From the IMG/VR virus record IMGVR_UViG_2909303794_000008: a stretch of DNA of 38,381 bases. One strand, 5' to 3'. Origin of the DNA: a virus (taxonomy: Duplodnaviria > Heunggongvirae > Uroviricota > Caudoviricetes). Made by a program: the position numbers and the translations under genes. The notes under the pieces were generated by a model. The model was given only the letters and a program-made list of their open reading frames with translations. It had not been told where the DNA came from and ran no database searches. Below are positions 16,092 through 37,266 of the stretch, piece by piece; positions within the stretch are counted from its first letter, which is position 1, and each line of letters begins with the position of its first letter.

Positions 16092-16137
16092 AGGGAAAGG
16101 TTGCCATCAGGGGAAGAAAGGCGGCAGTGCTGCAACT

Positions 16138-16155: not shown

Positions 16156-16159
16156 AAGA

Positions 16160-17554: not shown

Positions 17555-17928
17555 GCTGCTACCTGTTGCGCCATCTGATTACGGGTGTTCCAGAAGGCAA
17601 TAACGGTCAGTAGATAAAAGACCAGGGTAAGAGCCCACCCCGTCCAGGCGAGACTGACGACAATCAGCAATCGCATCATCCAGCTGATAAATACGTTTTC
17701 TTTTCGGGTAATTGTCTTCAGCAAAGATGCCCTCAACTCCTGCCAGAGCGGGCCGTTCTTAATTAACGCAGCCAGTGATACCGGAATTACTGCCCATGTC
17801 AGCAGACAGGCTACCCAGACACCAGATGCTGCCAGTACCGGAAAAATCCCCTGCGGATACACCATTGCGGCGATTAACAGCGCTATCCATAACATCAGAA
17901 ACAGCCCGCTGATTACTTTCTTTTTCAT
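17551..17928 (-). CDS. lysA: LysA-like membrane protein (lysis timing)
   Basis: start set to ATG at 17928 (MKKK), one nt after the K stop and preceded by GGGAG; multi-TM. Confidence 0.6.
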   Translation of the reverse strand: MKKKVISGLFLMLWIALLIAAMVYPQGIFPVLAASGVWVACLLTWAVIPVSLAALIKNGPLWQELRASLLKTITRKENVFISWMMRLLIVVSLAWTGWALTLVFYLLTVIAFWNTRNQMAQQVAA

Positions 17929-17929
17929 T

Positions 17930-18442
17930 TCAGTTTGCTCCCTGTAAGCACCAGGCCATCTCCCGCGCACGGCGGTTATCCAGCCCCTGATTAAACACAC
18001 CTTTTACATACACCCAGCGCGGCAACTGTCGGCACGCATCCGCCCAGCGCCGCTGATTGAGCAATTTCACCAGCGTGGAACTGCAGGCATTGCCCGTACC
18101 CACGTTGAAGGCAAACGACACCGCAGCGTCATACACCTTCTGCGGCGGCTGTTGCTTCACACACCTTTCCAGCGCCCGCTCCACACGCAGCACGTTGGAG
18201 ATCAGCCCTTCTGCTGCCTGTCGCTCCGTAATGGTTTTGCCGGGAATGACGCCCGACGTATTACCAATGCCGTCGGTCCAGACACCCGCGCTGCACTGAT
18301 ACGGCTGCAGACGACAACCTTCGTAATCGGCAATCAGTTTCAGCCCTTCCACGGAGGTGTGAAGCTGCTGAAAACCCGGCAGCGTGGCAGCAATAGCCAG
18401 CACGGCCCCGACAAGGCAGCGTTTAACGATTGATGGATTCAT
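17930..18442 (-). CDS. K: endolysin (lysozyme-like, with N-terminal hydrophobic signal-anchor-like segment)
   Basis: 170 aa; EGxxLxAYxD...GVWTDGIGNT lysozyme-type motifs; N-terminal LVGAVLAIAATLPGF. Confidence 0.8.
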   Translation of the reverse strand: MNPSIVKRCLVGAVLAIAATLPGFQQLHTSVEGLKLIADYEGCRLQPYQCSAGVWTDGIGNTSGVIPGKTITERQAAEGLISNVLRVERALERCVKQQPPQKVYDAAVSFAFNVGTGNACSSTLVKLLNQRRWADACRQLPRWVYVKGVFNQGLDNRRAREMAWCLQGAN

Positions 18443-19404: not shown

Positions 19405-20055
19405 TCAGCGGCTGTCATTGCGCAGTCTGCGCTCCAGCTGCTGTTTGTCTTTTTTCACGCCACAGCGGGGATCGAGCTGTAACGCATGGTTGAGATGATT
19501 AAGGGCAGACGCCGGATTGCTTTCACTCAGGACAGCGCCAATCGCTTTATGCAGACGCGCCCGTGACTGGTCCGGCATATCCATACCGTCTGTCAGCTCC
19601 AGGGTCTGCAGCAACAGATCGGCATCAAAACCGGTGGCGGCAAGCATTGCGCTCTGGGCTGCATCTGCCATTTCCTCTGCCAGCACGGTCTGCACGTTGC
19701 GGTTACCTAACGGCATCACCCAGCCATGACGCAGGGCGTGACGCCCGATCTCCAGCGCCCCGGCATAATCTCCGGCATCAATGCGCCACAGCATCACGTA
19801 CATCAGCACGTCATCCTGTTGAGCGCCTCCGGCAGCCAGGACACCCTCCGCCCAGGCGGCGTACTTCGGCAGCAGCTCCACCTTGATTTCCGCTTTTTTG
19901 ACCGTGGACTGAACGCCCTTGAGACGGCGGCGGTCTTCCGCCAGTTGCAGCAGCATCAGGTCATAGCCCGACGCGTGGCGAACGCTGCCGCCCTCGCGGG
20001 CGGCCTGTTCAGCCTGAACGCGCAGGCGATGCTGCCGTGCGGGACTCAGGCTCAT
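19405..20055 (-). CDS. M: terminase small (endonuclease) subunit M
   Basis: 216 aa; ATG at 20055; resembles P2 gpM. Confidence 0.8.
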   Translation of the reverse strand: MSLSPARQHRLRVQAEQAAREGGSVRHASGYDLMLLQLAEDRRRLKGVQSTVKKAEIKVELLPKYAAWAEGVLAAGGAQQDDVLMYVMLWRIDAGDYAGALEIGRHALRHGWVMPLGNRNVQTVLAEEMADAAQSAMLAATGFDADLLLQTLELTDGMDMPDQSRARLHKAIGAVLSESNPASALNHLNHALQLDPRCGVKKDKQQLERRLRNDSR

Positions 20056-20058: not shown

Positions 20059-21117
20059 TTACGCTCCGGTTTCTGCTGCTGCGGCGCTGAAGTCGCCAAT
20101 CTGGATGTTTTCCACCAGTGCGGCGCAGCGGTAGTCCTCAACCACATAGGCTTCGTTAACGGATTCAAAGTTTTCAATCCGGTCACGTTTCGGGTTGTCG
20201 ATAACTGAGCGGCGGCGGGTGTCTTCCTGCCAGTAGATGGACAGGTTATCCAGACGGGTGATCAGCAGTGCATTCGGCGGGAAGAACGGCGCACGCACGG
20301 CCTGCAGGCCACCCATGCGTTTCTGACTGATGATCATATCGGCAGCCAGTTTTTCACTGTTTTCCTGCTCTTTGTTGACCAGCGGGAAATACTTGTCAGA
20401 CAGCAGTTCACGACCGCAAATCACCACCAGATCGTCATCGTCCTGGTAGACCACATCGATAAGCTCATTGACGGCATCCATCACCACGGCGTCCAGGTTG
20501 GCATATTCGCCACCTTTCCCGACTTTCACCGCACCCGGTGTGGTTTCACCACCCGTGGTGGTGCTGCCCATGACGTGATCCGGTGCATCTTCACGGATTT
20601 TCTGCAGCCAGCCTTTGTTCACATCCTGTAGCAGCGGGTTTTCGCTACGGTTGGAGGTTTTCGCACGCTTCACGCCGTTAAAGCCGATCATGATGCGGTC
20701 CAGAGCCTGACGTTTCACGATGGCGTCACGGATGCGCACCTGGAAATCCTGAAACTTCGCCCACAGGTCCAGCTTCGCGTAGGTCAGCACCGTGTCAAAG
20801 TTGGTCTGCTCGCATTTATATTCCACATCGACCATCAGCGTCGGATCGACAGGTTCACGCTCTTTCGCGGTGGTGTCAGTGGTTCCGGCAATGGTGCTGC
20901 CAACTCCCAGCCCCAGCAGCTGACCGGACTGCTCAGTCACTGGCGTGACGTTAATCAGCGTCAGGAAAGCGGCGGACTGCTGGATCTGGTCTTCCAGCGT
21001 CTGCTGCACAGACGGCTCCACGGTGAACTTGCTGGACAGTTCTTCAACTGCCACACCGTTCAGACGCGCCAGCTGCTGCAGGTAAGCGTTAAAAGCAAAG
21101 CGGGTATTCTTCTTCAT
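20059..21117 (-). CDS. N: major capsid protein N
   Basis: 352 aa; strong resemblance to P2 gpN across the whole length. Confidence 0.9.
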   Translation of the reverse strand: MKKNTRFAFNAYLQQLARLNGVAVEELSSKFTVEPSVQQTLEDQIQQSAAFLTLINVTPVTEQSGQLLGLGVGSTIAGTTDTTAKEREPVDPTLMVDVEYKCEQTNFDTVLTYAKLDLWAKFQDFQVRIRDAIVKRQALDRIMIGFNGVKRAKTSNRSENPLLQDVNKGWLQKIREDAPDHVMGSTTTGGETTPGAVKVGKGGEYANLDAVVMDAVNELIDVVYQDDDDLVVICGRELLSDKYFPLVNKEQENSEKLAADMIISQKRMGGLQAVRAPFFPPNALLITRLDNLSIYWQEDTRRRSVIDNPKRDRIENFESVNEAYVVEDYRCAALVENIQIGDFSAAAAETGA

Positions 21118-21133
21118 CGGGTTTTGTGCTCCA

Positions 21134-21967
21134 TCAGCAATTGGTCAGAGTGTCAGCGGGGGCGTTACCGCCTGTTGCACGCTGGCGGTAGTCCTGGCGA
21201 CTGTCTTCATGACTCAGCTTGTCCACCAGTTCGTTAAAGGCGGTTTGCTGTGCCTGCAGGGCAGTCTCCAGCTCAGACAGGCGTTCTTCCTGCTCAGACA
21301 GGGATTTTTCGGTGCGTGCGCTCAGGTTCTGCTGCTCAGTGGCGACCAGCTCCACGGCCTTATGCACATCAGAGAACCGGGCGTCATCGGACTGCTCTTT
21401 TTTGGTAAACAGCGCCGTGACGCGGGCAAACAGGGACGGTTTGTCGTCCTGGATTTCTTCCAGTTCGATCACCGTTTCCTCTGCAGCGGTAAAGAGATTG
21501 GCAGGATTCTGCTTGCGGTTTGCCAGCGGGTTATGGGCTGCACTGGCGCTGAATGTCAGCATTTCCGTACCCAGACTGGCAGGGTCATCAGTGGCAGCCA
21601 GGCCGACCAGATAGGCTTTGCCCGTATCAGCGAACTTCGGGCTGACTTCCATAGAGGTGAATAATTTCTGGCCTTTTTTCACCAGTTCCACCAGGGACTC
21701 CGTTGGCTCAACGTCGGCATACAGCGCCATCTTGCCTGCCAGCGGACCTTCCGTGATTTCTTCAGCAAACAGCGCCGTCACCTTGCCGTAGCGGTTAAAA
21801 GTGCTGTCCGGCAGATAAGACTTGATGTGCTCAAGGTTAATCAGCGCGGTATACACCGCCGGGTTGTAGCTGGCTGCCATCTGTTCCAGCCATTCACGCT
21901 GGATTTCGCGTCCGTCGGTGGTGGCACCTTCCACCCCGATGCGAAAACGCTTTGCTTTCACTGTCAT
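21134..21967 (-). CDS. O: capsid scaffolding protein O
   Basis: 277 aa; N-terminus KRFRIGVEGATTDGR; divergent from P. Confidence 0.85.
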   Translation of the reverse strand: MTVKAKRFRIGVEGATTDGREIQREWLEQMAASYNPAVYTALINLEHIKSYLPDSTFNRYGKVTALFAEEITEGPLAGKMALYADVEPTESLVELVKKGQKLFTSMEVSPKFADTGKAYLVGLAATDDPASLGTEMLTFSASAAHNPLANRKQNPANLFTAAEETVIELEEIQDDKPSLFARVTALFTKKEQSDDARFSDVHKAVELVATEQQNLSARTEKSLSEQEERLSELETALQAQQTAFNELVDKLSHEDSRQDYRQRATGGNAPADTLTNC

Positions 21968-22109: not shown

Positions 22110-23876
22110 ATGAACACCACACTGACACCCGCAGATCTCGATCCCCGTCGGCAGGCCATGCTGCTGTACTTTCAGGGATACCGCGTAGCCCGCATTGCTG
22201 AAATGCTGGGCGAGAAAGTTGCAACCGTTCACAGCTGGAAAAAACGCGACAAGTGGGGTGACTATGGGCCGCTGGATCAGATGCAGCTCACCACCGCCGC
22301 ACGCTACTGCCAGCTCATTATGAAGGAGCACAAAGAAGGGAAAGATTTCAAAGAGATTGACCTGCTGGCGCGCCAGTCGGAGCGCCATGCGCGGATCGGC
22401 AAGTTTAACAATGGCGGCAACGAAGCCGACTTAAACCCTAACGTCGCCAACCGCAACAAAGGCCCGCGCCGTCAGCCGGAAAAGAACGTTTTCACCGATG
22501 AACAGATTGAGAAGCTGGAAGAAATCTTCCATTCCTCCATGTTCAACTACCAGCGCCACTGGTGGGAAGCCGGAAAAACCAACCGCATCCGCAACCTGCT
22601 GAAGTCACGCCAGATCGGCGCGACCTTCTATTTTGCCCGTGAAGCCCTGATTGACGCCCTGCTAACCGGGCGTAACCAGATTTTCCTTTCCGCCAGCAAG
22701 GCTCAGGCCCACGTCTTTAAGCAGTACATCATCGACTTCGCCAAAGAAGTGGAGGTGGAGCTGAAAGGCGATCCGATGGTGCTTCCTAACGGGGCCACGC
22801 TGTACTTCCTCGGCACCAATGCCCGCACGGCCCAGAGTTACCACGGCAACCTGTATCTGGATGAATATTTCTGGATACCGAAATTCCAGGAGCTGCGCAA
22901 AGTGGCTTCCGGTATGGCTATTCACAAAAAATGGCGACAAACCTATTTTTCCACGCCATCCAGCCTGACACACAGTGCTTATCCGTTCTGGTCCGGTGCG
23001 CTGTTCAACCGAGGGCGCAACAAAGCCGATAAGGTGGACATCGACCTGTCCCACAGCAATCTGGCCCCCGGCCTGCTGTGCGCAGACGGACAGTACCGCC
23101 AGATAGTCACTGTGGAAGATGCGGTGCGCGGCGGCTGTAACCTGTTCGACCTCGACCAGTTGCGCATGGAGTACAGCCCGGACGAATACCAGAACCTGCT
23201 GATGTGTGAGTTCGTGGACGATCTCGCGTCTGTGTTCCCACTCAGCGAGCTGCAGGCGTGCATGGTGGACAGTTGGGAAGTCTGGACCGACTTTCATGCA
23301 CTGGCCCTGCGCCCGTTTGGCTGGCGCGAAGTGTGGATCGGGTATGACCCGGCGAAAGGTACGCAGAACGGCGACAGCGCCGGATGCGTGGTGGTGGCGC
23401 CGCCAGCCGTGCCGGGCGGTAAGTTCCGCATTCTTGAGCGTCACCAGTGGCGCGGAATGGACTTCCGCGCCCAGGCTGACGCCATCAAAAAACTGACCGA
23501 ACAGTACAACGTGACCTATATCGGTATCGACTCAACCGGCGTTGGTCACGGGGTTTACGAGAACGTGAAAGCGTTTTTTCCTGCCGTCCGGGAGTTTGTC
23601 TACAACCCCAACGTTAAAAACGCCCTGGTACTCAAGGCCTACGACATTATCAGCCACCGCCGTCTGGAGTTTGACGCCGGACACACCGACATTGCGCAGT
23701 CATTCATGGCAATCCGTCGCGCAACCACCGCCAGTGGCAACCGCCCAACCTATGAAGCCAGCCGCAGCGAAGAAGCCAGCCACGCCGATCTGGCCTGGGC
23801 AACGATGCACGCACTGTTTAACGAACCGCTGCAGGGCGAGTCCGCCAATACCAGCAATATTGTGGAGATTTTTTGA
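22110..23876 (+). CDS. P: terminase large (ATPase) subunit P
   Basis: 588 aa, ATG at 22110; P2 gpP-like. Confidence 0.9.
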   Translation: MNTTLTPADLDPRRQAMLLYFQGYRVARIAEMLGEKVATVHSWKKRDKWGDYGPLDQMQLTTAARYCQLIMKEHKEGKDFKEIDLLARQSERHARIGKFNNGGNEADLNPNVANRNKGPRRQPEKNVFTDEQIEKLEEIFHSSMFNYQRHWWEAGKTNRIRNLLKSRQIGATFYFAREALIDALLTGRNQIFLSASKAQAHVFKQYIIDFAKEVEVELKGDPMVLPNGATLYFLGTNARTAQSYHGNLYLDEYFWIPKFQELRKVASGMAIHKKWRQTYFSTPSSLTHSAYPFWSGALFNRGRNKADKVDIDLSHSNLAPGLLCADGQYRQIVTVEDAVRGGCNLFDLDQLRMEYSPDEYQNLLMCEFVDDLASVFPLSELQACMVDSWEVWTDFHALALRPFGWREVWIGYDPAKGTQNGDSAGCVVVAPPAVPGGKFRILERHQWRGMDFRAQADAIKKLTEQYNVTYIGIDSTGVGHGVYENVKAFFPAVREFVYNPNVKNALVLKAYDIISHRRLEFDAGHTDIAQSFMAIRRATTASGNRPTYEASRSEEASHADLAWATMHALFNEPLQGESANTSNIVEIF

Positions 23877-24901
23877 TGGGAAAGAGTAAGAAAAACCGCA
23901 CTGCGGCGACGAATCAGATCCAGCATAAAAGCCAGACTTCAGCCGAAGCATTCAGCTTCGGTGATCCCGTTCCTGTACTTGACCGCCGCGAACTGCTGGA
24001 CTATGTGCAATGCGTACAGACAGATCGCTGGTATGAGCCGCCAGTGAGTTTCGACGGTCTGGCTCGCACCTTCCGCGCCGCCGTGCATCACAGTTCCCCG
24101 ATTGCAGTAAAGTGCAACATTCTGACCAGTACCTATATCCCTCATCCTCTGCTCAGCCAGCAGGCTTTTTCGCGTTTTGTGCAGGACTATCTGGTATTTG
24201 GCAACGCCTATCTGGAGAAACGCACGAACCGCTTCGGTGAAGTGATCGCCCTTGAACCTGCGCTGGCAAAATACACCCGACGCGGATTAGACCTGGATAC
24301 CTACTGGTTTGTGCAATACGGTATGACAACCCAGCCGTATCAGTTCACGAAAGGCAGCATCTTTCATCTGATGGAACCGGACATCAACCAGGAGATCTAC
24401 GGCCTGCCCGGTTATCTTTCTGCCATTCCGTCAGCCCTGCTCAACGAGTCCGCCACGCTGTTCCGCCGAAAGTATTACATTAACGGCAGTCATGCTGGCT
24501 TCATCATGTACATGACCGATGCTGCGCAGAACCAGGAGGATGTGAACAACCTCCGCAACGCAATGAAAAGCGCCAAAGGTCCAGGCAACTTCCGCAACCT
24601 GTTTATGTACTCACCTAACGGCAAAAAGGATGGTCTTCAGATTATCCCGTTGTCAGAAGTCGCGGCAAAGGATGAATTTCTGAACATCAAGAACGTGAGC
24701 CGGGATGACATGATGGCGGCACACCGCGTGCCTCCACAAATGATGGGTATCATGCCGAATAATGTTGGCGGGTTTGGGGATGTGGAGAAGGCATCCACGG
24801 TTTTTGTACGTAATGAATTAAAGCCTCTTCAACAACGAATTAGAGAGGTGAACAATTGGCTACATGATGACGTAATAAAATTCCAAGATTACTCCTTGTA
24901 A
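23876..24901 (+). CDS. Q: portal protein Q
   Basis: ATG at 23876 overlaps the P stop (TGATG); the track start 23873 is TTG; P2 gpQ-like. Confidence 0.9.
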   Translation: MGKSKKNRTAATNQIQHKSQTSAEAFSFGDPVPVLDRRELLDYVQCVQTDRWYEPPVSFDGLARTFRAAVHHSSPIAVKCNILTSTYIPHPLLSQQAFSRFVQDYLVFGNAYLEKRTNRFGEVIALEPALAKYTRRGLDLDTYWFVQYGMTTQPYQFTKGSIFHLMEPDINQEIYGLPGYLSAIPSALLNESATLFRRKYYINGSHAGFIMYMTDAAQNQEDVNNLRNAMKSAKGPGNFRNLFMYSPNGKKDGLQIIPLSEVAAKDEFLNIKNVSRDDMMAAHRVPPQMMGIMPNNVGGFGDVEKASTVFVRNELKPLQQRIREVNNWLHDDVIKFQDYSL

Positions 24902-24904
24902 TTA

Positions 24905-24942
24905 AAGCCTCTTCTTTAGAAACCCATCCAAAGAAGAGGCTT
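24905..24942. terminator. 13-bp perfect inverted repeat between convergent Q and NTase genes (bidirectional terminator-like hairpin)
   Basis: aagcctcttcttt(24905-24917)/aaagaagaggctt(24930-24942), 12-nt loop; no clear U-tract. Confidence 0.4.
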
Positions 24943-24953
24943 ATTGCCACCCG

Positions 24954-25271
24954 TTATATACCACATACAAAATTGATCTTAACGCTTTTATCAACAACAA
25001 GCAGAGAAGTGCCAACAGACTTAATAAATCCCAGTTCATACTCTTCTGAATGCGTCATTGTAATAATATGAACAGGAACAAATAAATCAAGCTCCCGCAG
25101 CTTTCGCTTCAATAATAAACCATCGACACAATCACCTATCACAAGCATATCAATATCATTTGCATCGCAAAAACTCTTTAATGCTGACCCAAATACATAT
25201 ACATCCACCATATATAAACTATGATGGATAATAACATCACAGATCGATTCAATCGTATGTTTAAAATTCAC
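24954..25271 (-). CDS. minimal nucleotidyltransferase (Pol-beta superfamily, MNT-like)
   Basis: 105 aa with the GS-X9-DID motif (VYVFGSALKSFCDANDIDMLVIG); GTG start overlapping the upstream TAG stop by 1 nt; AT-rich. Confidence 0.6.
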   Translation of the reverse strand: MNFKHTIESICDVIIHHSLYMVDVYVFGSALKSFCDANDIDMLVIGDCVDGLLLKRKLRELDLFVPVHIITMTHSEEYELGFIKSVGTSLLVVDKSVKINFVCGI

Positions 25272-25930
25272 TACCGTGAAATTCTTCGTAATAAATCACC
25301 CAACTTGTAAAGCTCCACCCCGATACTTTGAGCAGCCTCTTTTGCCTGAGTCGTCAATCGTCCATTAGGATTGGAGGAAAAAACAACATCACAATTGCCA
25401 TGCAACCCTATCGCATCTCTTACAGAACCCGCTGTCATATCATAATCATTCGCAGCGATAATAACTAAGTCCGCCAAGCCACGTCTTTTAAGTCTATATT
25501 TTTTGTTGGTTTCTCGCTCTACAGAGCTTACATGTGAATGTTGATTGAACACTCTATTTATAAACAAATGCTCTTTATCAAGATGCTCAAGCGGATTATT
25601 AGCTCTTAAAGAAGATGCAATATGCCCAAATGAACCCACTCCTATTTTCTTTTGTTCTAGTAATCTCATTGCATCACCAGAGATAAATTCAACACCTCCC
25701 TTGACTGATAGAAAATCAATTTTTTTATTGTCTAGGTATTCATTTATCTCAGGACATGTTATCCGGCCAGTATTGATTGCCCCGATCAAATAGGTGTCAC
25801 CCTGTGTAGTATTAATCACTAAAGTACCATCACCTATCACCTCTATATTTTCGACACATTTATTTTCTTGTAATTTTCCTGCCATCCATGAAATATAGCC
25901 TTCACTCGCATTTATGCTCATTGGATTCAT
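25271..25930 (-). CDS. hypothetical protein, middle gene of three-gene cargo operon
   Basis: 219 aa; ATGA overlap with the upstream gene and 1-nt overlap with the downstream gene; no domain recognised with confidence (weak Rx6H HEPN-like motif RANNPLEH). Confidence 0.5.
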   Translation of the reverse strand: MNPMSINASEGYISWMAGKLQENKCVENIEVIGDGTLVINTTQGDTYLIGAINTGRITCPEINEYLDNKKIDFLSVKGGVEFISGDAMRLLEQKKIGVGSFGHIASSLRANNPLEHLDKEHLFINRVFNQHSHVSSVERETNKKYRLKRRGLADLVIIAANDYDMTAGSVRDAIGLHGNCDVVFSSNPNGRLTTQAKEAAQSIGVELYKLGDLLRRISR

Positions 25931-26622
25931 CCTATAAATAGTTCAGATGCAGCTTCTGGAAACCTACTACCATTAGCATCGGTTAAGCCCAAATGTTTTG
26001 ATTCAAAGTCATCTATATGAACACAAAGCTTTGAAAAAACATTCTTCTCATCTTCACTCATGAGGTGATAGTTTTGTTCAACCAGTCGCTGTACTTTTCT
26101 ATTGTTGGGTAAGATATGAGATTGTACTTTTCTTAACCATACTTCTGCATTTGGATTTTCAGGGTCAACGCTGTTCTCTTGGGTTGGTCCATATGTTACA
26201 AAAATGGTATTGTTTTCTCTGAAGTATTTTTCTAACTCCTGTCTAACAGATTCTCGATTGTCATATGTTTTAACACCAAAGGTTGCATTTATTTTATCAA
26301 TATGGCCGTTTTTCCAAGAACGGATAATTTCATCAGTAAAATGTTCCTCTGCCTTATCAATTGTCGTATGGCAATTAGCACATAGAAGAATAATGTTGTC
26401 AAAATGACCTCTCTGCTCATCAGTTAGATCAGCATTGGTTCTAGGTCCATTATCAATGGCACTAAAAATGTGAGCAAGTTCTCCAATTGTTATATTTTTG
26501 TCGCCAGCATCAACAAACAAAGGTTGCAAACATTGTGGATTTTGGCAAAAGCCACCTGAGCTGGCAAAAAGCCGTCTAACTGTATTAGCGTTTGGAGAAG
26601 CTTTTCCCCTACTGCAAGCCAT
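25927..26622 (-). CDS. HNH endonuclease-domain protein
   Basis: 231 aa; CQNPQC...GELAHI...N...LLCANCH (HNH with zinc-binding cysteines); ATG at 26622 with AAGG SD. Confidence 0.65.
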   Translation of the reverse strand: MACSRGKASPNANTVRRLFASSGGFCQNPQCLQPLFVDAGDKNITIGELAHIFSAIDNGPRTNADLTDEQRGHFDNIILLCANCHTTIDKAEEHFTDEIIRSWKNGHIDKINATFGVKTYDNRESVRQELEKYFRENNTIFVTYGPTQENSVDPENPNAEVWLRKVQSHILPNNRKVQRLVEQNYHLMSEDEKNVFSKLCVHIDDFESKHLGLTDANGSRFPEAASELFIG

Positions 26623-26710
26623 GAACTAACCTTAAAAGTATAGAAATTAGGATGTTAATTTATTACTGAACAACCCTATAAGCAAGCTTGCTAATTGTGG
26701 TGAGCGCGCG

Positions 26711-26729
26711 CTCGTATCCCCGCCACGCC
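26711..26729 (-). other. putative cos (cohesive-end) site
   Basis: minus strand reads GGCGTGGCGGGGATACGAG followed by CGCGCGCTCAC; the first 13 nt match the P2/186 cohesive end as I recall it (GGCG[A/T]GGCGGGGAAAGCA[C/T]); lies in the intergenic gap between the two cargo clusters. Confidence 0.35.
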
Positions 26730-26914
26730 TGCCCGCTTTATGTAGCGGTTTTCATGCAGGCGCATGATCTACGCAAAATCCCACCAGTTCTGGCGTGCCT
26801 TAGCAAAAACGATCCGCAAACGATCATGCGATCTCATGCGGCATAGTCATGCACTTACGGGGGAAGTGAAATCCCGTAACCGAATGACCGCTTGAAAAAC
26901 AAAACTCTCGTTTT

Positions 26915-26949
26915 TATAAAGCACAAAGTCCGCTTTGAGCAAAGCGGAC
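26915..26949 (-). terminator. rho-independent terminator downstream of the KAP NTPase gene
   Basis: stem gtccgcttt(26928-26936)/aaagcggac(26941-26949) followed on the minus strand by TTTGTGCTTTAT. Confidence 0.5.
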
Positions 26950-27014
26950 GTTAATAATTTTACTGACTATCCCTAGTACTTCTAATAATATTGCCTATGT
27001 TAATCAACAAAAAG

Positions 27015-28907
27015 TTAATCAGTTCCCTCAGTAAAGAATTTGATTGCGCTAGTTAGTACATAGTCAATAAAAAACTTTACGTGAAAAACCTGAAAGGAGT
27101 TATTGGCTGCGTTTTGAGTGAAATCTACAGCTATCTCTTTTAGGTTAATCAACCAGTTGTATTCTTCGGTCAGTCTGGTTCTAGCATCCCCATCAGAATA
27201 ACGATTCCGCAAGCTAAATGCCAGTTTCCTCATGAGGACTGGGTCAAGTTTCCTATAGCTTTCAATGAAAACTTCAGGAGGAACCAAGTGTAAAAAAGGC
27301 ACGTTATGAAGATTTAACTGCCTATTATTAGAATGACTCAATTCAGATACAAACGATAAGTTTCCCCTTTGCAACTCATCGCTGAACTGCAACGCAAATT
27401 CCGGAATTGATTCATCAAACCGTTTCTTCTTCGCTATCTCAATATGCTCAATAATGAGTTTGAATTCATCGCTATCCCTGTCAAGAAAACCAAAGCCACG
27501 CCATGCCCTTAATTCGTTATAATGCGTTTGCGCATATTCCTTATGTATATCTTCAGCTCTAAGTCTATTATAATAATTATTTATATTCTGTTTTGTCTCA
27601 TTTATGAGATCATGAACATCATCTGTTGTTAGACCTTCTTTCGCCATGTCCAGCAAAATACTCGCGGTCATCAGGAGTTCACCTAAGGAAGTGATCTTAC
27701 CTGAAAATAGATTATCCTTGGCAATGGCGTACTGCTCATTAAGCATAGTTTCATTAAGTTCTCGATAGTTCCACAAATACTCCCATGCTTGGGCATCGGT
27801 GCTTCTAAAAAATCGCGTAATATCCAACTGAGCGAGAAGTTCACTCGTTACCTTTCCATCACAGATTAGCTCCCTCCAGTACGCACCATCCAGTAACTTC
27901 TCGGTTAATACAGGAGATGAATATTTCTCGACGATCATGTCATACTTAGTTTTGGTACGCTCTTTACCTAAAAACATACCATAATTAACATTGCTGATTG
28001 AATCGAAATCCTCGTAGTTAAGGTTCCCTCCCCGGTACTCTATCGAGAAAATTAACAACTGCTGGAAAAATACCCTCATAAAATCGTCGTTGCTGACATA
28101 TTTATTTCCCAAAAGGGAAATGATGCGTTGTACATCAAGAAAGAACTGCCTCAAGTGTCTTAGATTATTATATTTCGCCGACACATAGATGTCTTCTATG
28201 GCCTGCATATCTTCTTTAAATATATTAGCAACGTGTAAACTGCTAATTACGCCCAAAAAAACATTACAAGCACTATGTAAATCTGACGTTACTTCAAATG
28301 TTTTACCAACAAGCTTTTCTTTTGTTCTCATGTATTCGCTGCTAGATTTCTCGTCATCATTATTTATTCGCTTTTCTCTATTGATTATTTCTTCTTCATT
28401 GGCAACCAAGATCGCTTTGTATCCGTTTACTTCTACAAAGTGGTTTATATATCCAAATAAAATTGGTAAATCTATACCAGCTCTCTCGATATCATCAAAG
28501 ACCAGCACAAAACCATCTGGTTTTCTACTAAAATCGTTAAGATTAATGGTGGGAACATTGGTATTGACATCAACGTCAGATTTATTATCGCCATTGAGAT
28601 CGATCTTGAAAGTAGCCTTAAGCGTATTTTTTAGTACATTTGCACCAAAGATAAGGGCTTTGTTTGATAGGACAGGATGAAGTTGACGATAGAACTCATC
28701 TTCAATCTGCTTAATAGAGTTGACGCCATACAAACTCACTTTTAGAAATTTAAACTCTGAATTCTTCTGCTTATATTCTTCAAGAACTTGTTCAATGAAC
28801 CAAGTTTTACCTGATCCCCAAGCACCTTTAAGCATAATGGCGTATTGAGGTTCAGTTGTAAGGCTAAGGTAATATTCTATATAGTCTTTGATGTACGTAT
28901 TGTTCAT
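27015..28907 (-). CDS. KAP-family P-loop NTPase
   Basis: Walker A GAWGSGKT near the N-terminus and Walker B-like VLVFDDIER about 100 aa later; start set to ATG 28907 (the track start 28958 is TTG); AT-rich. Confidence 0.7.
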   Translation of the reverse strand: MNNTYIKDYIEYYLSLTTEPQYAIMLKGAWGSGKTWFIEQVLEEYKQKNSEFKFLKVSLYGVNSIKQIEDEFYRQLHPVLSNKALIFGANVLKNTLKATFKIDLNGDNKSDVDVNTNVPTINLNDFSRKPDGFVLVFDDIERAGIDLPILFGYINHFVEVNGYKAILVANEEEIINREKRINNDDEKSSSEYMRTKEKLVGKTFEVTSDLHSACNVFLGVISSLHVANIFKEDMQAIEDIYVSAKYNNLRHLRQFFLDVQRIISLLGNKYVSNDDFMRVFFQQLLIFSIEYRGGNLNYEDFDSISNVNYGMFLGKERTKTKYDMIVEKYSSPVLTEKLLDGAYWRELICDGKVTSELLAQLDITRFFRSTDAQAWEYLWNYRELNETMLNEQYAIAKDNLFSGKITSLGELLMTASILLDMAKEGLTTDDVHDLINETKQNINNYYNRLRAEDIHKEYAQTHYNELRAWRGFGFLDRDSDEFKLIIEHIEIAKKKRFDESIPEFALQFSDELQRGNLSFVSELSHSNNRQLNLHNVPFLHLVPPEVFIESYRKLDPVLMRKLAFSLRNRYSDGDARTRLTEEYNWLINLKEIAVDFTQNAANNSFQVFHVKFFIDYVLTSAIKFFTEGTD

Positions 28908-29221
28908 TTTTAGTCCATTTTGATAAAATACATAAACATAGATGGTAAGTAGAGCCAAAGGCCAACTATGGAAAATTCAATCGGTAGTGTACATTGTAAG
29001 GTTATTATTAGTAAATTTTATAGAAATGCCCATAATCTTACAAAATTCAGATTATCCGTTGCGAATTAGTCTGCCATTCGTTAATTAACGAAAGTTAGCA
29101 GAAGAAACGTTTGCATCTTGCACAAAGCAGACGATCATTTATCAAAATGACCTTACACCTTATTTCACTCGTTGCCCAAACTAGCCCCCATCAGAATGAA
29201 TCCTCCTGGGGGCAACGTTTC

Positions 29222-29455
29222 TTAATGCAGCCAGCTGTCGTCTTCCCACACCTTCTGCATAATTTTCATCACTTGTTTTCTTTCTTCGTCCAGTTGCAGT
29301 CCGGTCAGTTCCACACCGTTAGAGCTACCTTTGCGGATACGAATTACCGTTTTGGGATACAGGGGGCGCAGATTGCGGTAAAGCTCGGATTCAAGGGCGT
29401 CCAGTGTAGACTGGCTAATCTTCTGCTCTTTATCGATCATTATTTCAATGCGCAT
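29222..29455 (-). CDS. dinI: DinI-family protein
   Basis: 77 aa starting MRIEIMIDK and ending WEDDSWLH, resembling DinI; GAGGTG SD; the track ORF is longer through an upstream in-frame extension. Confidence 0.7.
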   Translation of the reverse strand: MRIEIMIDKEQKISQSTLDALESELYRNLRPLYPKTVIRIRKGSSNGVELTGLQLDEERKQVMKIMQKVWEDDSWLH

Positions 29456-29465
29456 AAAAGTCACC

Positions 29466-29654
29466 TCAGCTGATGACATCCATTGAGCGGTTGTATTCGT
29501 GGCTTCTGATTTTTGCCATGAGTTCATCAGTCAATTCAGAAACCCACTGCAGAGCCAGCCCCTTCTCTTCATCACTACACTCACTAGCCGCTACAAGCTT
29601 AAGAAAAAAATCAATGCGCTGGAGCTTCAAAGACTCCAAAAAATAGTCCTGCAT
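29466..29654 (-). CDS. small SOS-regulated protein (possible Tum-like antirepressor)
   Basis: 62 aa, ATG at 29654 with GGAGG SD, about 40 bp downstream of a LexA box; function inferred only from context. Confidence 0.4.
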   Translation of the reverse strand: MQDYFLESLKLQRIDFFLKLVAASECSDEEKGLALQWVSELTDELMAKIRSHEYNRSMDVIS

Positions 29655-29695
29655 CTTTCCTCCTATGACACCACACGCAATGCTGTACGCATAAC

Positions 29696-29715
29696 CACTG
29701 TTTATATTTACAGTA
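29696..29715. promoter_or_regulatory. LexA operator (SOS box)
   Basis: CACTGTTTATATTTACAGTA = CTGT-N8-ACAG with an AT-rich spacer, 19/20 to the consensus TACTGTATATATATACAGTA. Confidence 0.75.
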
Positions 29716-29807
29716 TATAATAATCTTACTGATGTAAAACGTTTTTTTACGCTTATCAGCCTGATATGCCTGGTATTATTAAGAGCACGAATTGTTAGCC
29801 AGCGTAA

Positions 29808-32222
29808 TTAATACAGGTTCCGCCACTTATCATCTTCCTGCAAACGCTGGTTCCAATAGAAGATACGCAGGCCTGCTCCTGACGGAATACTGCCGCCGCG
29901 AAGGAGTAAATCGACCTCTTTCTCGCTGCCATCAAATCCTCTGGATTTCAGTTCATAGACGAGCTGCTGTCGTTGATGGTCTGTAATTCGCTGTTTGTAG
30001 TCTCTACGTCGTTTCGGTTTCACCAGACGTAACCTTGCAGCCAGTTCCCGGCGCTCCTTTTTGTTCATACTGTGCAGGTAATCGTGCAACTCCTTGTCAT
30101 CCATGCGGGTAAAGTCCGTTCTGGGGTCCCCATCAGCTGATTTATCTTTCTCCTGTTGGTTCAAATTTTCAGCAAGGGGACAGTTATTGCCACGAGTCCA
30201 AGGGGCGCAAGCGCCCTGGTCGGCTGCCGCCTCCTGAACATCAACGGCCTTACGAACCATTTTCCACTTCACGGCATGAGTGCAGATCTTGCCCTCTGCA
30301 ATAGGTGACCAGATGCCATAAATACGAATGCCGTGATCGCCATAGGCGGTCGGCTCTTCGTTGATTTCATAAGCGGTTCTGATGAGGTGATATTTGCGGG
30401 GAACCAGTACGCCGCCCTGCTTCATGATGTAGGTGGCAAAACAACCAGCATCAGCAGCAGCCAGGATGGCATCAAGGCGTGGGTTATCCAGTACCGGCGC
30501 ACCTGCTTTTTTGTCCCCCTGTTGCCTTGCCGCCTGACCAGCCAGCAATCGCAGTTCACGGTAAGCCTGACGCCCCGGAATGCCAAAGAAGCGGAATTGC
30601 TGAACACGATGCAGAGACGCCCAGGCATTAACGTATTCAGCATTATCACGCAGGGATTTCCCCGTTTCCTTGCTGATCTCGCCAGCCAGACCACGCCCGT
30701 CAATGTTCTTACTGATGTATTTCGCGATGTAGCTTGTTGGCGTTCCTTTGCGCGGGTTAATCAACTCAGACTTAAAGCGCGGCCCAGTGTTATTGCCCAG
30801 CTCCTCGCGGTCTTCACGGATGGCAAACTTACGCAGTAATGCAGTGATGGCACGGCGGTCTTTTTTGCGCATGAAACACAACAGGTGCCAGTGAACTGTG
30901 CCGTCATGATGCGGCTCAGCCACCCGCACGCCATACCAGCGCAACCCGGCTTTGTGCATCGCCTTACGAAATGCAGCAAACATGCCGACCAGATAATCGC
31001 TGCTTTGTCTTACCGTCGCGTTTGTCCAGGTCGGGTTTGGTCTGCCGTTATTGAGCGTGGAATGGAAACGTGACGGACAGGTGATGGTGTAGAAAACGGC
31101 GCAGTCACCGCGCATTTCCGCGATAAGCTCCAGACCTTTAACACAGGCCATCATCTCATTGCGGCGATGCGCCGGGTTGCTGCTGCTGGCGTTTACCACA
31201 TCCTCCATGTCCAGCGTGTCGCCGTCTTCGTTCACCAGTTCATGAGAACGGAAAAACTCCAGCGACTTACGGCGCTGCTCACGTTTATGCATCACGGCTT
31301 CATAGCTGACATAGGGAGATGCTTTTTTGCTGACCAGGCAGACAGCACGCAACTGCTCTTCCCGCCATTCGCAACGCATCTTCCATAATTTCCGATACCA
31401 CCAGTCGGCGCACAACATACGCGCCAGCGAACCCGGAATGAGTTCATAGGGCACGGGTTTACGGCGGTTTCTTTTCCGACGGAGTTGCTCAAACGCAGGA
31501 GGGATTACATCCAGACGCAGGGTTTCCGCTGCCACCTTTTCCCATGTCTTGCGGATTTCTTCTGGCTTAACGTCATCGGTGGCATACAAATCACCACAAG
31601 CTGCATCAAGGCACATGCTCATATGCGCGGCAACAAGGGTAGACAGGCGCTTCACCTGATCCTGACTCATTTCAGGCAGGATCAGCAGGCCGTCCAGCCC
31701 TTCATGGCTTGCCATAAAGCGAAAAGAAGTGGATAGCTGACTCTCGCGTACATGCTCCAGTCGTTCCAGACATGGCTTAATCGTCTCACGCAAATAGCGG
31801 GAATAAGCCTTTGGCCTGCCCAGGCTGCTGAAGTATTCAATACGTTGCATCAGCGGCTTGCTGATATGGGAAGGCTGGGCGTTGACGTCCGCCAGAATGA
31901 CCATATCCGGATTAAAACGCTGCTGCTCATGCGCCAGCTTTGCCCGACTAATGAGCTTATCCTGCTCGATTTCGCGCTGGACAGGATCACGGGATTCATT
32001 AAAGAAATAACGCTCCCAGACCTGATCACTCAGCGCCTCACGGCGCAGCTGTTCCTGCTCGTTATCGGCAGCGTACAGAGTGATCAGGTTTGAAAGCGCA
32101 GAAACCGGCGCAACTTCCGCCGGGTCCAGATAAGGGTTAATGGCCTTTTTCGGGCTGCTCCATGAGAATGCTGCTGCGACCTCGTTAAAGCCGCTGCAGT
32201 TGTTCATATCAGCATGGCTCAT
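29808..32222 (-). CDS. A: replication initiation endonuclease A (rolling-circle Rep)
   Basis: 804 aa; HWH metal-binding motif and YIAKYISKN tyrosine motif; ATGA overlap with dam. Confidence 0.9.
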
Positions 32223-33076
32223 GCACGCACTCCGTACACGGCAGAACTATCCACGCCACGCGAAGGATCAAATCCCACCCAGCAGCGCGGCCCGGAAACA
32301 GCGATGATTTCTGTTGCTGATTTACACTCGCCAGCTGCCACACCGATGCTGCGTTTTACCTTGATATAGTGGTGAGTAAAATTGCGATACAGCGAACGAA
32401 TCAGGGATGTGTCACTGTTAGAAACAATGACCGGATGTCCTTCAGATGATCGATGTTCAAGAACGGATGCCAGGTGATACTGGTCATCTTCAGTGAAACC
32501 ATCAGTGTGATAGCCGGAAAACGTACCGTCATAAGGCGGATCGCAATACACCACATCCCCCGCCTTCAACATCGCCAGCGTTTCATCAAAGCTGGCGCAG
32601 ATAAACGTTGCCCGCTGGGCTTTTTCTGCAAATGCGCGAATTTCTTTTTCAGGGAAATACGGTTTTTTATAATTCCCGTAGGGAATGTTGAAATGTCCGC
32701 TCTTGTTATAACGACATAACCCACGGTAACCGTGACGATTGAGATACAGGAAATATACTGCTTTCATGAAATCAGTAATTTCAGATGAGTAATTAAACTC
32801 CTGCCTTATGTTGTAATAAGCCACCTCCCTGTTTGCTTCCTCAAATAAGACTCTGGCACGAGATATAAATGATTCGCAATCAGCGGCAATCTTTTTATAG
32901 AGGTTGATTAAATCAGGATTAATATCAGCAACCAGATAGCTGGGGTAATCCGTCGCCATCATCACAGCACAGGAACCCGCGAAAGGTTCAACCAGTCGCG
33001 GGCCAGCAGGAAGGTGTTTTTTCAGTTCGGACATAATGGCGGTTTTATTACCCGCCCATTTCAGGATGGTGCTCAT
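32219..33076 (-). CDS. dam: DNA adenine methyltransferase (Dam-like, GATC type)
   Basis: LKWAGNK, EPFAGS (motif I) and DPPY (motif IV); start set to ATG 33076 (ATGA overlap with the upstream gene). Confidence 0.85.
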
Positions 33077-33300
33077 ACAGCACCTCCGTTGTAATGTTTG
33101 CCTTTCAGCTCTGCGATTTCCTGGCAGGTAATGCAAAGCTGCACTCCCGGAATGGCGCGGCGTCGTGCTGGCGGAATTGGCGCTTCACATTCAATACAAA
33201 GCACGCGAGACACGCCCGGTGTTTTGGCACGGGCAGCACGAATATGGCGCTGGCGTTCTTCTTCAACGCGCTGCTGTACGAGATCCATTGCATCAGCCAT
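33073..33300 (-). CDS. TraR/DksA-family C4 zinc-finger protein
   Basis: 75 aa; CIECEAPIPPARRRAIPGVQLCITCQ. Confidence 0.6.
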   Translation of the reverse strand: MADAMDLVQQRVEEERQRHIRAARAKTPGVSRVLCIECEAPIPPARRRAIPGVQLCITCQEIAELKGKHYNGGAV

Positions 33301-34113: not shown

Positions 34114-34623
34114 TCACAGCAAACCGAATGAAGCACCGAGGCCAGTCACGGTATCAACTGCACTCGCCATCGCAGGATTAGCCTGTAAACGGGCCTGCAA
34201 TGAAACAGCGGCCAGCGCCATCAGTCGTGTTACAGAGTTAATGCTGCTGATAGCATCACGACGACCTGCACTGGTTTTTACATCGCCAGATACCGCACCT
34301 GCAGCAACACGCCCGATCTCTGCGGTTGCACTCATGACATAATGCGGCAGTTTCTCTTTTGCCACCTCATTAATCGGTACACATGGCAGGCAGTGAATCT
34401 GTGCCAGAAAGCCATCTACCAGCGTTGAATCTTCAGTCAGATCGGTAAGCAACCAGATTTCTGGTGCGGTTAATAAATGAGGTTGAGCTGGGTTCAGCTT
34501 GTTCCGCAGAATCTGTACATTCATGCCTGCACGTTCTGCCAGTCGCACCAGGTTGTGGCGCAGTGCGAATGCACGACAGGCTTCGTCAAAATGTGGATGT
34601 TTGGAAACTTGGTAATCAAACAT
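34114..34623 (-). CDS. B: replication protein B (helicase-loader-like)
   Basis: start set to [12 protein letters not shown], giving 169 aa; P2 gpB-like. Confidence 0.8.
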
Positions 34624-34655
34624 AGTCGACACCCCTGATGTATCCCAAAATGGAA

Positions 34656-34877
34656 CTAGTTGAATACAACATTGCAATCAGTAAGTGCATCAACGGTAAG
34701 AGCAGCAAGGTTGATCATTACCTTTTCTCTTTTCTTGTCTTTCCGAAGGCGATGGCGAGGGATGCGACCATCAGCCAGCATATCGTTGATGGTGTCGATA
34801 GAAAGACCAGTAAGTTCGCTATAACGCTCAATTGTGACGTGTGGCGTATTCAGAGTTATTGAAATGTTAGGGGTCAT
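34656..34877 (-). CDS. Apl/Cox-like excisionase/early regulator
   Basis: 73 aa from ATG 34877 with AGGAGA SD; first gene of the early operon, divergent from cI. Confidence 0.5.
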
Positions 34878-34972: not shown

Positions 34973-35569
34973 ATGTCAACATCAAAGTACCCAAATGAGA
35001 TCAAAATAAATCCCAATAAAGGTGGTAAGGCTGCGATTGAGCGATTAGTCGAAGCTTATGGCTTTACGACACGACAGGCTTTAGCTGATCACTTGGAAGT
35101 ATCAAAAAGCACTCTGGCGAACAGGTATTTGCGGGATACGTTTCCTGCAGACTGGATAATCCAATGTGCTCTTGAAACAGGAACCTCACTGAAATGGTTA
35201 ACCACCGGGCAAGGCCTTAAGCAAAGCTCGCTGACAGCAGCTACAGAAGAGCTTGCCAAGTTTCGCCTTACCGCAGGCAAAATGATTGAAGATGGTTCAT
35301 ATGTCTTCGATTCATCATTTCTTCCTGCAAATCTTTCATCACCAATTGTTATTCAGGATGGGCTCGTCACATACATTTGTGATCAAAAATTTTCTGAAGT
35401 ACTTGATGGGCACTGGTTAATCAACATCGACGGAACCTATTCCATTCGAAAAATCACAAAGCTTCCAAAAGGTATGATTAAAATTACAAGTACAGAGAAT
35501 AGCTTTGAATGTGCATTTTCTGATATTGAAGTAGTTGCTTGTATAAGAAGTACAATAGTTTCAAATTAA
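34973..35569 (+). CDS. cI: CI immunity repressor (phage 186 CI type)
   Basis: 198 aa; N-terminal EAYGF...LANRY...CALETG...WL.TG and C-terminal WLINIDGTYSIRKITKLP resemble 186 CI. Confidence 0.8.
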   Translation: MSTSKYPNEIKINPNKGGKAAIERLVEAYGFTTRQALADHLEVSKSTLANRYLRDTFPADWIIQCALETGTSLKWLTTGQGLKQSSLTAATEELAKFRLTAGKMIEDGSYVFDSSFLPANLSSPIVIQDGLVTYICDQKFSEVLDGHWLINIDGTYSIRKITKLPKGMIKITSTENSFECAFSDIEVVACIRSTIVSN

Positions 35570-35589: not shown

Positions 35590-37266
35590 ATGAATTCATT
35601 TTCCATCGTTATATTCTTATTAGCATTTCTCGCCCCCATTCTAGCTGTAATATTATTTAAGCAAAGCAAAAAACATAAAGCGGCTATAGATACCTTGACA
35701 GCTAACAACATAGCCCTTTCCAACCAACTGAAAGAAAATCAAGAAGAATTAGCACAGACTGTACGAGATCTATCAGAGCTTGAAGGACGAGCTGCACCAT
35801 TATGGCAATACGTAGAATTGCACAGCGCAGTGATGGAAGCAGAGAATAAGATAAAAAATGCAGACTCAATAGCCAGGCAAAAAATAGAAGAAGCCCAAAT
35901 AAAGGCTGCTAAGACAGTAAACGAAGCAAATTATCAAGCTCAGATAAAAATAAGCAACGCTAATAGCGAAGCTATAGCAATTACTAAAGACGCTCGCGAT
36001 GCACGCCTGAAAGCTAAAGAACGTCTTGATAATGCCAATAGTAAAGCAAATGAGCTGATCTCAAATGCTAATGACAATGCAGTGAAAATTATTTCCGATG
36101 CAGAAGAAAGAGCAAAAGAGATTGCTGGTTCAGCATATGAAGCTAAAGAGTTTGCAGAAAAATATGAAGCAGTTGCCAAATCAATGAAAAATAAAATTGA
36201 AGGTTATGGTGATGAATGGATCATCCCTAACCGTAGCGTTCTCGATGAATTGGCAGAAAATTATGAGTTTACAGATGCAGGCAAGGAATTACAAAAAGCC
36301 AGGGAGTTAACAAAATCATTAATAAAAACTAATAAAGCTGCTTCGTGTGATTATGTTGAACAAAACAGGCGTAATACTGCTATCAACTTTGTTTTAGATG
36401 CCTTCAATGGAAGAGTTGACAGTATTTTATCAAAAGTCAAACACAACAATTTTGGAAAACTTTCCCAAGAGATAAAAGATGCGTTTCAACTTGTAAATTA
36501 CAATGGTTCTGCCTTTAGGTCCGCAAAAATAAGTGACATCTATCTTCAAGCTCGACTCAACGAGCTAAAATGGGGTGTTGCAGTTAATGAAATTATGCTC
36601 GAAGAAAAAGAAGAGCAAAGAAGGATTAAAGAACAACTTCGTGAAGAGGAAAGAGCTCGTAGGGAGTATGAAAAAGCGATAAAAGAAGCTGAAAAAGAAG
36701 AGAAAGCTATTCAGCAAGCTATAAATAAAGCAACAAAAGAGCTTATGCTTGCAAATGAAGAACAACGCTTAGCTTTAGAGCAAAAAATAGCTGAACTACA
36801 GTTAAAATATGAAGAAGCTGAAGCTAAAAACCAACGAGCTATTTCTATGGCTCAACAAACTAGATCAGGCCACGTTTATATAATTAGTAATATTGGCTCA
36901 TTTGGCGAAGATGTATATAAAATTGGAATGACACGCCGCCTTGAACCACTTGATCGTGTTCGTGAACTCGGTGATGCTAGTGTTCCTTTTTCGTTCGATG
37001 TTCATGCGATGATTTATAGTGATGATGCACCATCATTAGAAAATCATCTGCATAAAGTCTTCAACGAAAAACAGGTCAATAAAATTAACTCACGAAAAGA
37101 GTTTTTCAACGTAAATATTAAAGAAATTAAGTCTGTTATTGAAGATATGAACATCAACGCACAATGGACAATGTTTGCGGAAGCGAAAGAATATAGAGAG
37201 TCACTGGCGATTGAGCAAGAGCGCAAAGCAGCAACTTCCGCCAACGATGAACTGCATGTTGCTTAG
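35590..37266 (+). CDS. membrane-anchored coiled-coil protein with C-terminal T5orf172 (GIY-YIG-like) domain; DUF4041-like architecture
   Basis: 558 aa; N-terminal TM helix, long coiled coils with repeated NANS/KANE motifs, C-terminal GHVYIISN...VYKIGMTRRL...ENHLH...EFF motif; AT-rich; AAAGGA SD 20 bp after the cI stop. Confidence 0.6.
   Translation: MNSFSIVIFLLAFLAPILAVILFKQSKKHKAAIDTLTANNIALSNQLKENQEELAQTVRDLSELEGRAAPLWQYVELHSAVMEAENKIKNADSIARQKIEEAQIKAAKTVNEANYQAQIKISNANSEAIAITKDARDARLKAKERLDNANSKANELISNANDNAVKIISDAEERAKEIAGSAYEAKEFAEKYEAVAKSMKNKIEGYGDEWIIPNRSVLDELAENYEFTDAGKELQKARELTKSLIKTNKAASCDYVEQNRRNTAINFVLDAFNGRVDSILSKVKHNNFGKLSQEIKDAFQLVNYNGSAFRSAKISDIYLQARLNELKWGVAVNEIMLEEKEEQRRIKEQLREEERARREYEKAIKEAEKEEKAIQQAINKATKELMLANEEQRLALEQKIAELQLKYEEAEAKNQRAISMAQQTRSGHVYIISNIGSFGEDVYKIGMTRRLEPLDRVRELGDASVPFSFDVHAMIYSDDAPSLENHLHKVFNEKQVNKINSRKEFFNVNIKEIKSVIEDMNINAQWTMFAEAKEYRESLAIEQERKAATSANDELHVA

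Follow-up and report, generated by a model that had tools for sequence, protein, structure and literature searches.

Where would the DNA of a P2-like prophage be cut for packaging when the expected region is crowded by accessory genes on both sides? The stretch analysed here (IMG/VR record IMGVR_UViG_2909303794_000008; 38,381 bases, hereafter the window) holds an apparently complete Fels-2/186-type P2-like prophage (Peduoviridae, Felsduovirus-like) from an Escherichia coli chromosome. The locus in question, 26623-27014, is the exact intergenic gap from a minus-strand open reading frame (ORF) of 231 amino acids (aa; 25927-26622) to a minus-strand ORF of 647 aa (27015-28958). An earlier note on this DNA had proposed that the gap holds a cos site resembling those of P2 and 186, that flanking dyads could serve as terminase recognition elements, and that cargo would then lie on both sides. 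Judged from its sequence, 26704-26853 is very probably the cos packaging site of this prophage.

The minus strand from 26729 to 26711 reads GGCGTGGCGGGGATACGAG, and from 26710 to 26700 it reads CGCGCGCTCAC, starting with CGCGCGC, as had been claimed. An exact search of the window found the 13-mer GGCGWGGCGGGGA at this one place. In the P2 record, the cohesive end occupies positions 1-19 (GGCGAGGCGGGGAAAGCAC, followed by tgcgcgctgac), and the same positions hold it in the 186 record (GGCGTGGCGGGGAAAGCAT, followed by tgcgcgccaga), where the end is annotated as "top strand cut at 5' end and bottom strand cut at 3' end". The ends of the two records were joined into circular junctions and then aligned with the window. 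The homology takes in the 19-mer, extends over GCGCGC towards gpQ and continues for about 125 bp in the opposite direction. As an illustration, the flank and the first bases of the 19-mer are ctgcatgaaaaccgctacataaagcgggca/GGCG in the window and ctgcattaaaaccgacccataaagtgggca/GGCG in 186. The 19-mer fits the P2-family form GGCG(A/T)GGCGGGGA......, and the P2/186 consensus used in the earlier note was essentially right (the matches are given below).

26711-26729, minus strand: predicted 19-nt cohesive end GGCGTGGCGGGGATACGAG, from homology to the annotated ends of P2, 186 and SEN8.
26704-26758, minus strand: 55-bp P2-family cos core, made up of TGCATGAAAACCGCTACATAAAGCGGGCA, the 19-mer and CGCGCGC; positions -29 to +26 counted from the first base of the cohesive end.
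Window against P2: 43/55 in the core, 14/19 in the 19-mer.
Window against 186: 45/55 in the core, 15/19 in the 19-mer.
Window against P4: 44/55 in the core, 14/19 in the 19-mer.
Window against SEN8: 53/55 in the core, 19/19 in the 19-mer.

SEN8 is a Salmonella phage of Felsduovirus that was isolated as virions. Its record (KT630647.2) starts with the same 19-mer, annotated as "putative cos site", and continues with cgcgcgc; the genome announcement (PMC5427200) mentions "a cos site (ggcgtggcggggatacgag)". Right-arm homology to the window was seen in SEN8 as well. The same 19-mer is found in seven more IMG/VR contigs. The closest DNA relatives of the window by BLAST were E. coli prophages and Fels-2-type phages, and wherever other phages and E. 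coli prophages aligned, the homology started at 26700-26704. In 86 phage records (lowest E value 2e-61), the 150-bp block 26703-26855 was the sole part of the intergenic region that was conserved. The gene order around it is gpQ - cargo - cos - cargo - DinI - gpA in P2 orientation, with gpM, gpP, gpN and gpO present. The predicted end (26711-26729, minus strand) lies between gpQ and gpA. As in P2 and 186, the GGCG strand reads towards gpQ, a gene of the opposite strand. At the sequence level the locus thus has the 19-mer form, the 55-bp core, the location and orientation, the gpM/gpP terminase and the TGCAT array of a P2-family cos. The P2/186-type assignment made in the earlier note gains support from the alignments to the P2 and 186 ends and flanks, from the full 19-mer match to SEN8, from the gene context and from the terminase genes.

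A pattern scan of IMG/VR returned 120 loci; once P2, 186 and the window were added, 110 cos regions remained as a non-redundant set. The classes of the 19-mer were counted in 115 extracted regions, before de-duplication: AAAGCAC (66), AAAGCAT (21), ATAGCAT (8), ATACGAG (8, the window included) and rarer ones. The conservation profile of the 110 regions ended sharply at +26, that is, after the 19-mer and YGCGCGC, and reached about -125 on the other side. All ATACGAG-class members diverged from one another from +27 on.

The arm on the gpA side carries a repeat array with the following elements.

26752-26853, minus strand: candidate right-arm recognition region (cosB-like) with five YGCATGA.
26853-26847 and 26758-26752, minus strand: TGCATGA copies.
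26840-26834 and 26830-26824, minus strand: CGCATGA copies.
26761-26767, plus strand: inverted CGCATGA copy.

Within 131 bp (26730-26860), YGCATGA occurs five times, once in inverted and four times in direct orientation. Dinucleotide shuffles of this arm had a mean of 0.15 copies and a maximum of 2 (at least 5 in 0/2000), and the density across the whole window was 0.06 per 131 bp. The repeated catgcg motif pointed out earlier is the stronger signal in this arm. The 9-bp inverted repeat CGCATGATC (26761-26769) / GATCATGCG (26822-26830) is also real, with 100% complementarity between arms 52 nt apart. Among dinucleotide shuffles made from the 392-bp region, however, 16% had at least one perfect 9-bp inverted repeat, which makes this repeat weak evidence by itself. 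In relatives, its conservation is limited to 6-7 bp, corresponding to the motif core, and we rejected it as a conserved dyad; it is two opposed copies within the five-copy array. Among the 110 cos regions, YGCAT was found at -124 in 56, at -111 in 76, at -101 in 87 and at -29 in 109, against a background of 1-2 per position, and inverted ATGCR was found at -36 in 72. The satellite P4 has the same array at conserved positions. Because their positions are fixed in the 110 regions and in P4, the YGCATGA repeats are probably terminase recognition elements. The flanking dyad of the earlier note is best read as part of this repeat array. Right-arm conservation with the prophage of E. coli ATCC 8739 and with other relatives stops at about 26853-26855, at the end of the array.

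Two further dyads lie within the conserved block.

26733-26748: short dyad CCGCT-N6-AGCGG, right next to the cut site and inside the core; terminator-like on the plus strand.
26782-26795: degenerate dyad CACCAG-TT-CTGGCG, moderately conserved.

The P2 and 186 equivalents of the first are in a shifted register. For the second, most Fels-2-type relatives have a perfect GCCCGCCAG-AA-CTGGCGGGC and 186 has CGCCAGAGCTGGCG, while it is absent from P2.

The enzyme that would act on this site is encoded by two genes of the same prophage.

19405-20055, minus strand: terminase small subunit gpM (Pfam Phage_term_smal, E 1.5e-40), the expected cos-recognition subunit.
22110-23876, plus strand: terminase large subunit gpP (Pfam Terminase_6N, Terminase_6C and Terminase_5), the enzyme expected to cut cos.

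The N-terminal 110 aa of the window gpP were about 55% identical to those of gpP proteins linked to P2/186-type cos sites and 95% identical to those of one linked to ATACGAT. That the gpP N-terminus tracks the cos class is consistent with a matched pair of enzyme and site, and ordinary phylogeny would give the same pattern. For co-variation of the cos class with gpM, 0 ATACGAG-class loci extended to gpM.

Several points weigh against taking the locus as a working cos with the ends given above. Positions 14-20 of the window read TACGAG/C where P2 and 186 have AAGCAC/T, at the presumed bottom-strand nick, and the exact cut position and the overhang length could therefore differ. The cos annotation of SEN8 is itself 'putative', apparently by analogy, and the cos call for this prophage and for every ATACGAG-variant phage is based on homology. 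The conserved 55-bp stretch in the 110-site profile spans -29 to +26, and its conservation in IMG/VR is partly by construction because the search pattern fixed part of the core; the pattern did not include the GCAT repeats, GCGCGC or the six final bases of the 19-mer (positions 14-19). The protein that binds the repeats is one we infer (gpM/gpP). Finally, the integrase end of the prophage, on the right, runs beyond the window, so that intactness is only partly covered.

The last point, together with the five mismatches implied by the 14/19 match to the P2 end and the degraded state of the dyad at 26782-26795 relative to relatives, would fit a relic, that is, a cos-like sequence of a defective prophage or a variant that the resident terminase does not cut, with no current role in packaging. 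We consider this very unlikely. The core is identical to that of several independent IMG/VR contigs and is nearer to the class consensus than the core of SEN8, which was recovered as infectious particles. Moreover, the ORFs for head, terminase, tail, lysis region and regulation are all open and P2-like, and variation in the N-terminal domain of gpP follows the cos class, as would be expected of a matched pair. Slightly less probable still is that the dyads and the hairpin with its T-run are mainly transcription signals, terminators or operators of the flanking cargo operons, and not terminase elements. In favour of this reading, CCGCTTTATGTAGCGG+TTTTCATGCA (plus strand, 26733-26748) and 26831-26814 (minus strand) were flagged as terminator-like, a genuine terminator of the KAP gene lies at 26928-26949, and a palindrome lies at 26681-26692 in the left-cargo leader. 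However, this terminator and the palindrome move together with the cargo and not with cos, whereas the repeat positions are conserved in P2, P4, 186 and the 110 cos regions whatever the flanking cargo or its orientation. No local gene is transcribed across cos on the plus strand, and the single-strand DNA fold was no more stable than shuffles (z = -0.69). A structured RNA or DNA element was rejected because Rfam at E<=1 gave a spurious microRNA match only and the fold was shuffle-like, which fits duplex protein-binding sites and not a structured nucleic acid. The cos of a P4-like satellite was rejected as well, as the flanks are P2-type gpQ and gpA and ATACGAG was present in 0/18 P4-like elements, a small number.

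With the locus read as the cos of this prophage, packaging could proceed as follows. The prophage, whose inducibility we infer, would excise after induction and circularise. The terminase (gpM small and gpP large subunit) would bind the right arm, for which the five YGCATGA repeats (26752-26853) are the best candidate recognition elements, and the binding may be made by gpM and/or by the helix-turn-helix-like N-terminal Terminase_5 domain of gpP. The 55-bp core would then be nicked twice, at sites 19 bp apart. By analogy with 186, they would lie between 26730 and 26729 on the minus strand and between 26711 and 26710 on the plus strand. The product would be linear virion DNA with 5'-protruding 19-nt ends (GGCGTGGCGGGGATACGAG), with the three-gene operon at the extreme left and the KAP NTPase at the extreme right.

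The constrained DNA amounts to about 150 bp and reaches 7 bp beyond the cohesive end on the left and about 125 bp beyond it on the right; cargo begins at both edges. Since only this much is constrained, the flanking DNA forms free slots for accessory, probably mostly anti-phage, genes. As the earlier note had stated, cargo is found on both sides of cos, with the three-gene operon on the left of the P2 map (gpQ) and the KAP NTPase on the right (gpA).

24902-26703: left cargo slot, from cos to gpQ.
25927-26622, 25271-25930 and 24954-25271, minus strand: left cargo, three co-oriented genes of 231, 219 and 105 aa.
26623-26703, minus strand: leader/promoter region of the left cargo, reading away from cos.
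26681-26692: perfect 12-bp palindrome AGCAAGCTTGCT in this leader, 11 bp from the end of the core; identical in ATCC 8739.
26855-29200: right cargo slot, from cos to DinI/gpA.
26855-26879 and 26928-26949, minus strand: 3' end of the right module, with hairpin TTACGGG/CCCGTAA and the KAP intrinsic terminator, respectively.
27015-28958, minus strand: KAP-family P-loop NTPase of 647 aa (Pfam KAP_NTPase, E 4e-22).

The 231-aa protein has an N-terminal HNH nuclease (Pfam HNH_2) and resembles CBASS/SAVED-HNH effectors and the candidate PADLOC system PDC-M68A (E 2e-29), and the 219-aa and 105-aa proteins had no match in Pfam or PADLOC. This operon was found in 13/5426 complete E. coli genomes, including ATCC 8739. 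Up to 26702, its leader has no relationship to prophages other than that of ATCC 8739, to which it is identical. In a consensus scan, 26623-26703 showed no strong sigma-70 promoter from which the left cargo could be read, and the palindrome may be an operator. On the other side, the KAP NTPase matched the candidate single-gene PADLOC system PDC-S49 (E 4e-160). The right module is 99.8% identical in E. coli ECCHD184 and is also present in others; the stretch 26855-26949 is identical in ECCHD184 and in locus L094 of the IMG/VR scan, both with the same KAP gene. The exchangeable accessory genes flanking cos are probably anti-phage genes. The location of cos between them shows the HNH operon and the KAP NTPase to be separate, independently acquired modules and not one system.

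Another occupant of the left slot was seen in L026, an 11.9-kb contig with the same ATACGAG cos. There an IS3-family transposase pair (HTH_Tnp_1 and rve; 1707-2960 of the contig) lies 98 nt to the left of the 19-nt end, and the left slot therefore accepts insertion sequences as well. We rejected this contig as a satellite; it is a P2-like fragment in which DinI and the IS3 transposase adjoin cos.

How the two cargoes came together can be read from the relatives. The gpQ-to-gpA interval had partial matches in 1285 E. coli records, and no complete E. coli genome covered at least 80% of 24902-29807. Likewise, no genome in the collection of complete E. coli genomes held the left and right modules together. 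Coming from the left, the window and the ATCC 8739 prophage agree at every position up to 26745; from 26703 rightwards, the window is identical to the ECCHD184 prophage. This places a crossover within the 43-bp stretch 26703-26745 of the cos core. By this comparison the window is a mosaic in which a single crossover has brought a rare left cargo next to a right cargo that is commoner. ECCHD184 has the same KAP gene in the same slot and a DprA-containing pair in its left slot, and in L094 the right arm and the KAP gene are the same while the left cargo is different, with the break at +26. Across 101 loci, 52 left-flank clusters and 68 right-flank clusters formed 86 combinations, and of 88 pairs with a common right flank 17 also had a common left flank. 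The left and right slots assort almost independently. The conserved cos block would also act as a homology patch by which both slots are reshuffled among related prophages.

The core could even be an active joint for this reshuffling, with recombination stimulated by the ends that terminase makes, which would explain both the breakpoint within 26703-26745 and the nearly unlinked left and right cargo. A second idea comes from the GATC sites of the right arm.

26811-26814 and 26822-26825: GATC pair 11 bp apart, within the GATCGTTT direct repeat.
26766-26769 and 26830-26833: two further GATC sites of the window.
32219-33136, minus strand: Dam-like D12-class adenine methylase, adjoining gpA.

GATC at -96/-85, overlapping a YGCATGA repeat, was present in 9/9 members of the ATACGAG/ATACGAT classes, and the other cos classes had a mean of 0.2-0.7 GATC per 130 bp. 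The invariant pair, one helical turn apart, and the phage-encoded methylase suggest that cos recognition in the Fels-2 lineage might be gated by adenine methylation, by analogy with P1 pac. Only 3 loci reached far enough for methylase presence to be compared with the cos class. Both terminase-stimulated reshuffling at cos and Dam-gated recognition are speculative, and we regard them as unlikely.

Most of these traits have counterparts in known systems. Fels-2, RE-2010, SopEPhi, vB_EcoM-813R9 and SEN8 share with the window the right-arm repeats, including the GATC pair, and the position between gpQ and DinI/gpA. As in the window, SEN8, Fels-2 and vB_EcoM-813R9 have cargo between gpQ and cos; SEN8 and Fels-2 also have cargo between cos and DinI, whereas that side is empty in 813R9. 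The window differs from these phages in its cargo genes, its two extra GATC sites and its slightly degraded internal dyad. P2 and 186 have experimentally defined 19-nt 5' cohesive ends, and the 55-bp core is credited to Ziermann and Calendar (1990) in two later papers (PMC5694545, PMC3931495). They share with the window GGCG(A/T)GGCGGGGA, the GCGCGC left flank, the right flank TGCAT(G/T)AAAACCG...AAGCGGGC, the upstream TGCAT repeats, the orientation relative to gpQ and the gpM/gpP terminase. However, their positions 14-20 are AAGCA(C/T)/T, against TACGAG/C here, and their gpQ terminator lies within about 160 bp of cos without left cargo; the right slot holds old/tin in P2 and tum/orf97 in 186. 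The cos of lambda (cosN/cosB/cosQ) is similar in having a nicking site, one-sided repeated terminase-binding elements and 5' cohesive ends. It has no sequence relationship to the present site and differs in its overhang, 12 nt against 19 nt here; P2, for its part, can package from monomeric circles. Lambda has R sites where YGCATGA repeats are found here, and no IHF site was identified here.

The satellite P4 is packaged by the P2 terminase and has little other sequence in common with P2 (PMC9594776, PMC9122126). In our IMG/VR sample (L005-L124), 16/18 P4-like satellite loci had the P2-type AAAGCAC end and 0/18 the Fels-2-type ATACGAG end. Should larger samples show the same pattern, helpers of the Fels-2 type might meet P4-like hijackers less often, or they might have satellites of their own.

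Accessory genes beside cos are not new either. Dodd and Egan (1996) described how foreign genes (retrons) replace the DNA that lies between cos and the gpQ/W terminator, and PMC5694545, which cites them, calls the position a hotspot. Rousset et al. (2022) described the gpA-gpQ locus as a defence hotspot adjacent to cos with 1650 gene arrangements (PMC9122126), and a 2026 study reported rapid swapping at this locus (PMC13586616). The window resembles these cases in its variable accessory or defence genes beside cos and in their rapid exchange among otherwise near-identical prophages, and the DprA-containing pair in the left slot of ECCHD184 is similar to a system validated by Rousset et al. However, the published hotspot is mostly treated as one locus, whereas here the cos block of about 150 bp splits it into two slots.

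The remaining genes of the prophage and its surroundings are listed below.

2856-3107: ogr.
3165-18442: tail genes, assigned by ORF order and size without domain search.
20059-21967: capsid and scaffold ORFs, from the ORF list and annotated homologues.
23873-24901, plus strand: portal gpQ (Pfam Phage_portal), boundary of the left slot.
29222-29527: DinI/Tum homologue (Pfam DinI), with gpA the boundary of the right slot.
29808-32222, minus strand: replication protein gpA (Pfam Phage_GPA, E 8e-128), with DinI the boundary of the right slot.
34114-34677: CII.
34973-35569: CI repressor.
37350-38381: integrase.

Three observations concern regions away from cos. Between CI and the integrase, 35590-37266 (plus strand) encodes a 558-aa protein with DUF4041 and T5orf172/MUG113 (GIY-YIG-like) domains, and this region looks like a third accessory or defence slot of the same prophage. 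At the tail-fibre end, a Hin/Gin-type serine invertase (10145-10717, minus strand) lies beside opposed short ORFs (10739-11594, plus strand; 11566-12168, minus strand), which together probably form an invertible tail-fibre segment affecting host range. The host gene at 935-2620 (plus strand), just beyond the prophage on the ogr side, encodes an Asp-Al_Ex/TrkA_C permease (YidE/YbjL-like), and the attachment junction should lie within about 2620-2856.

The arrangement of a cos flanked by cargo is already documented and the biology of cos established (Ziermann and Calendar, 1990; Dodd and Egan, 1996; Rousset et al., 2022), and our findings on cos leave the current understanding unchanged. What is added here is a refinement, with no new principle: two slots, a sharp left boundary at +26 and a recombination joint within cos. 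For annotation, the predicted cos fixes the ends of the virion genome and defines both cargo slots, and a description of the P2-family cos by its sharp +26 boundary and five fixed YGCAT repeats is usable for finding cos sites and slot boundaries automatically. For the family, the window offers a clean nucleotide-level example of how probable defence genes reassort via a conserved patch of 43 bp.

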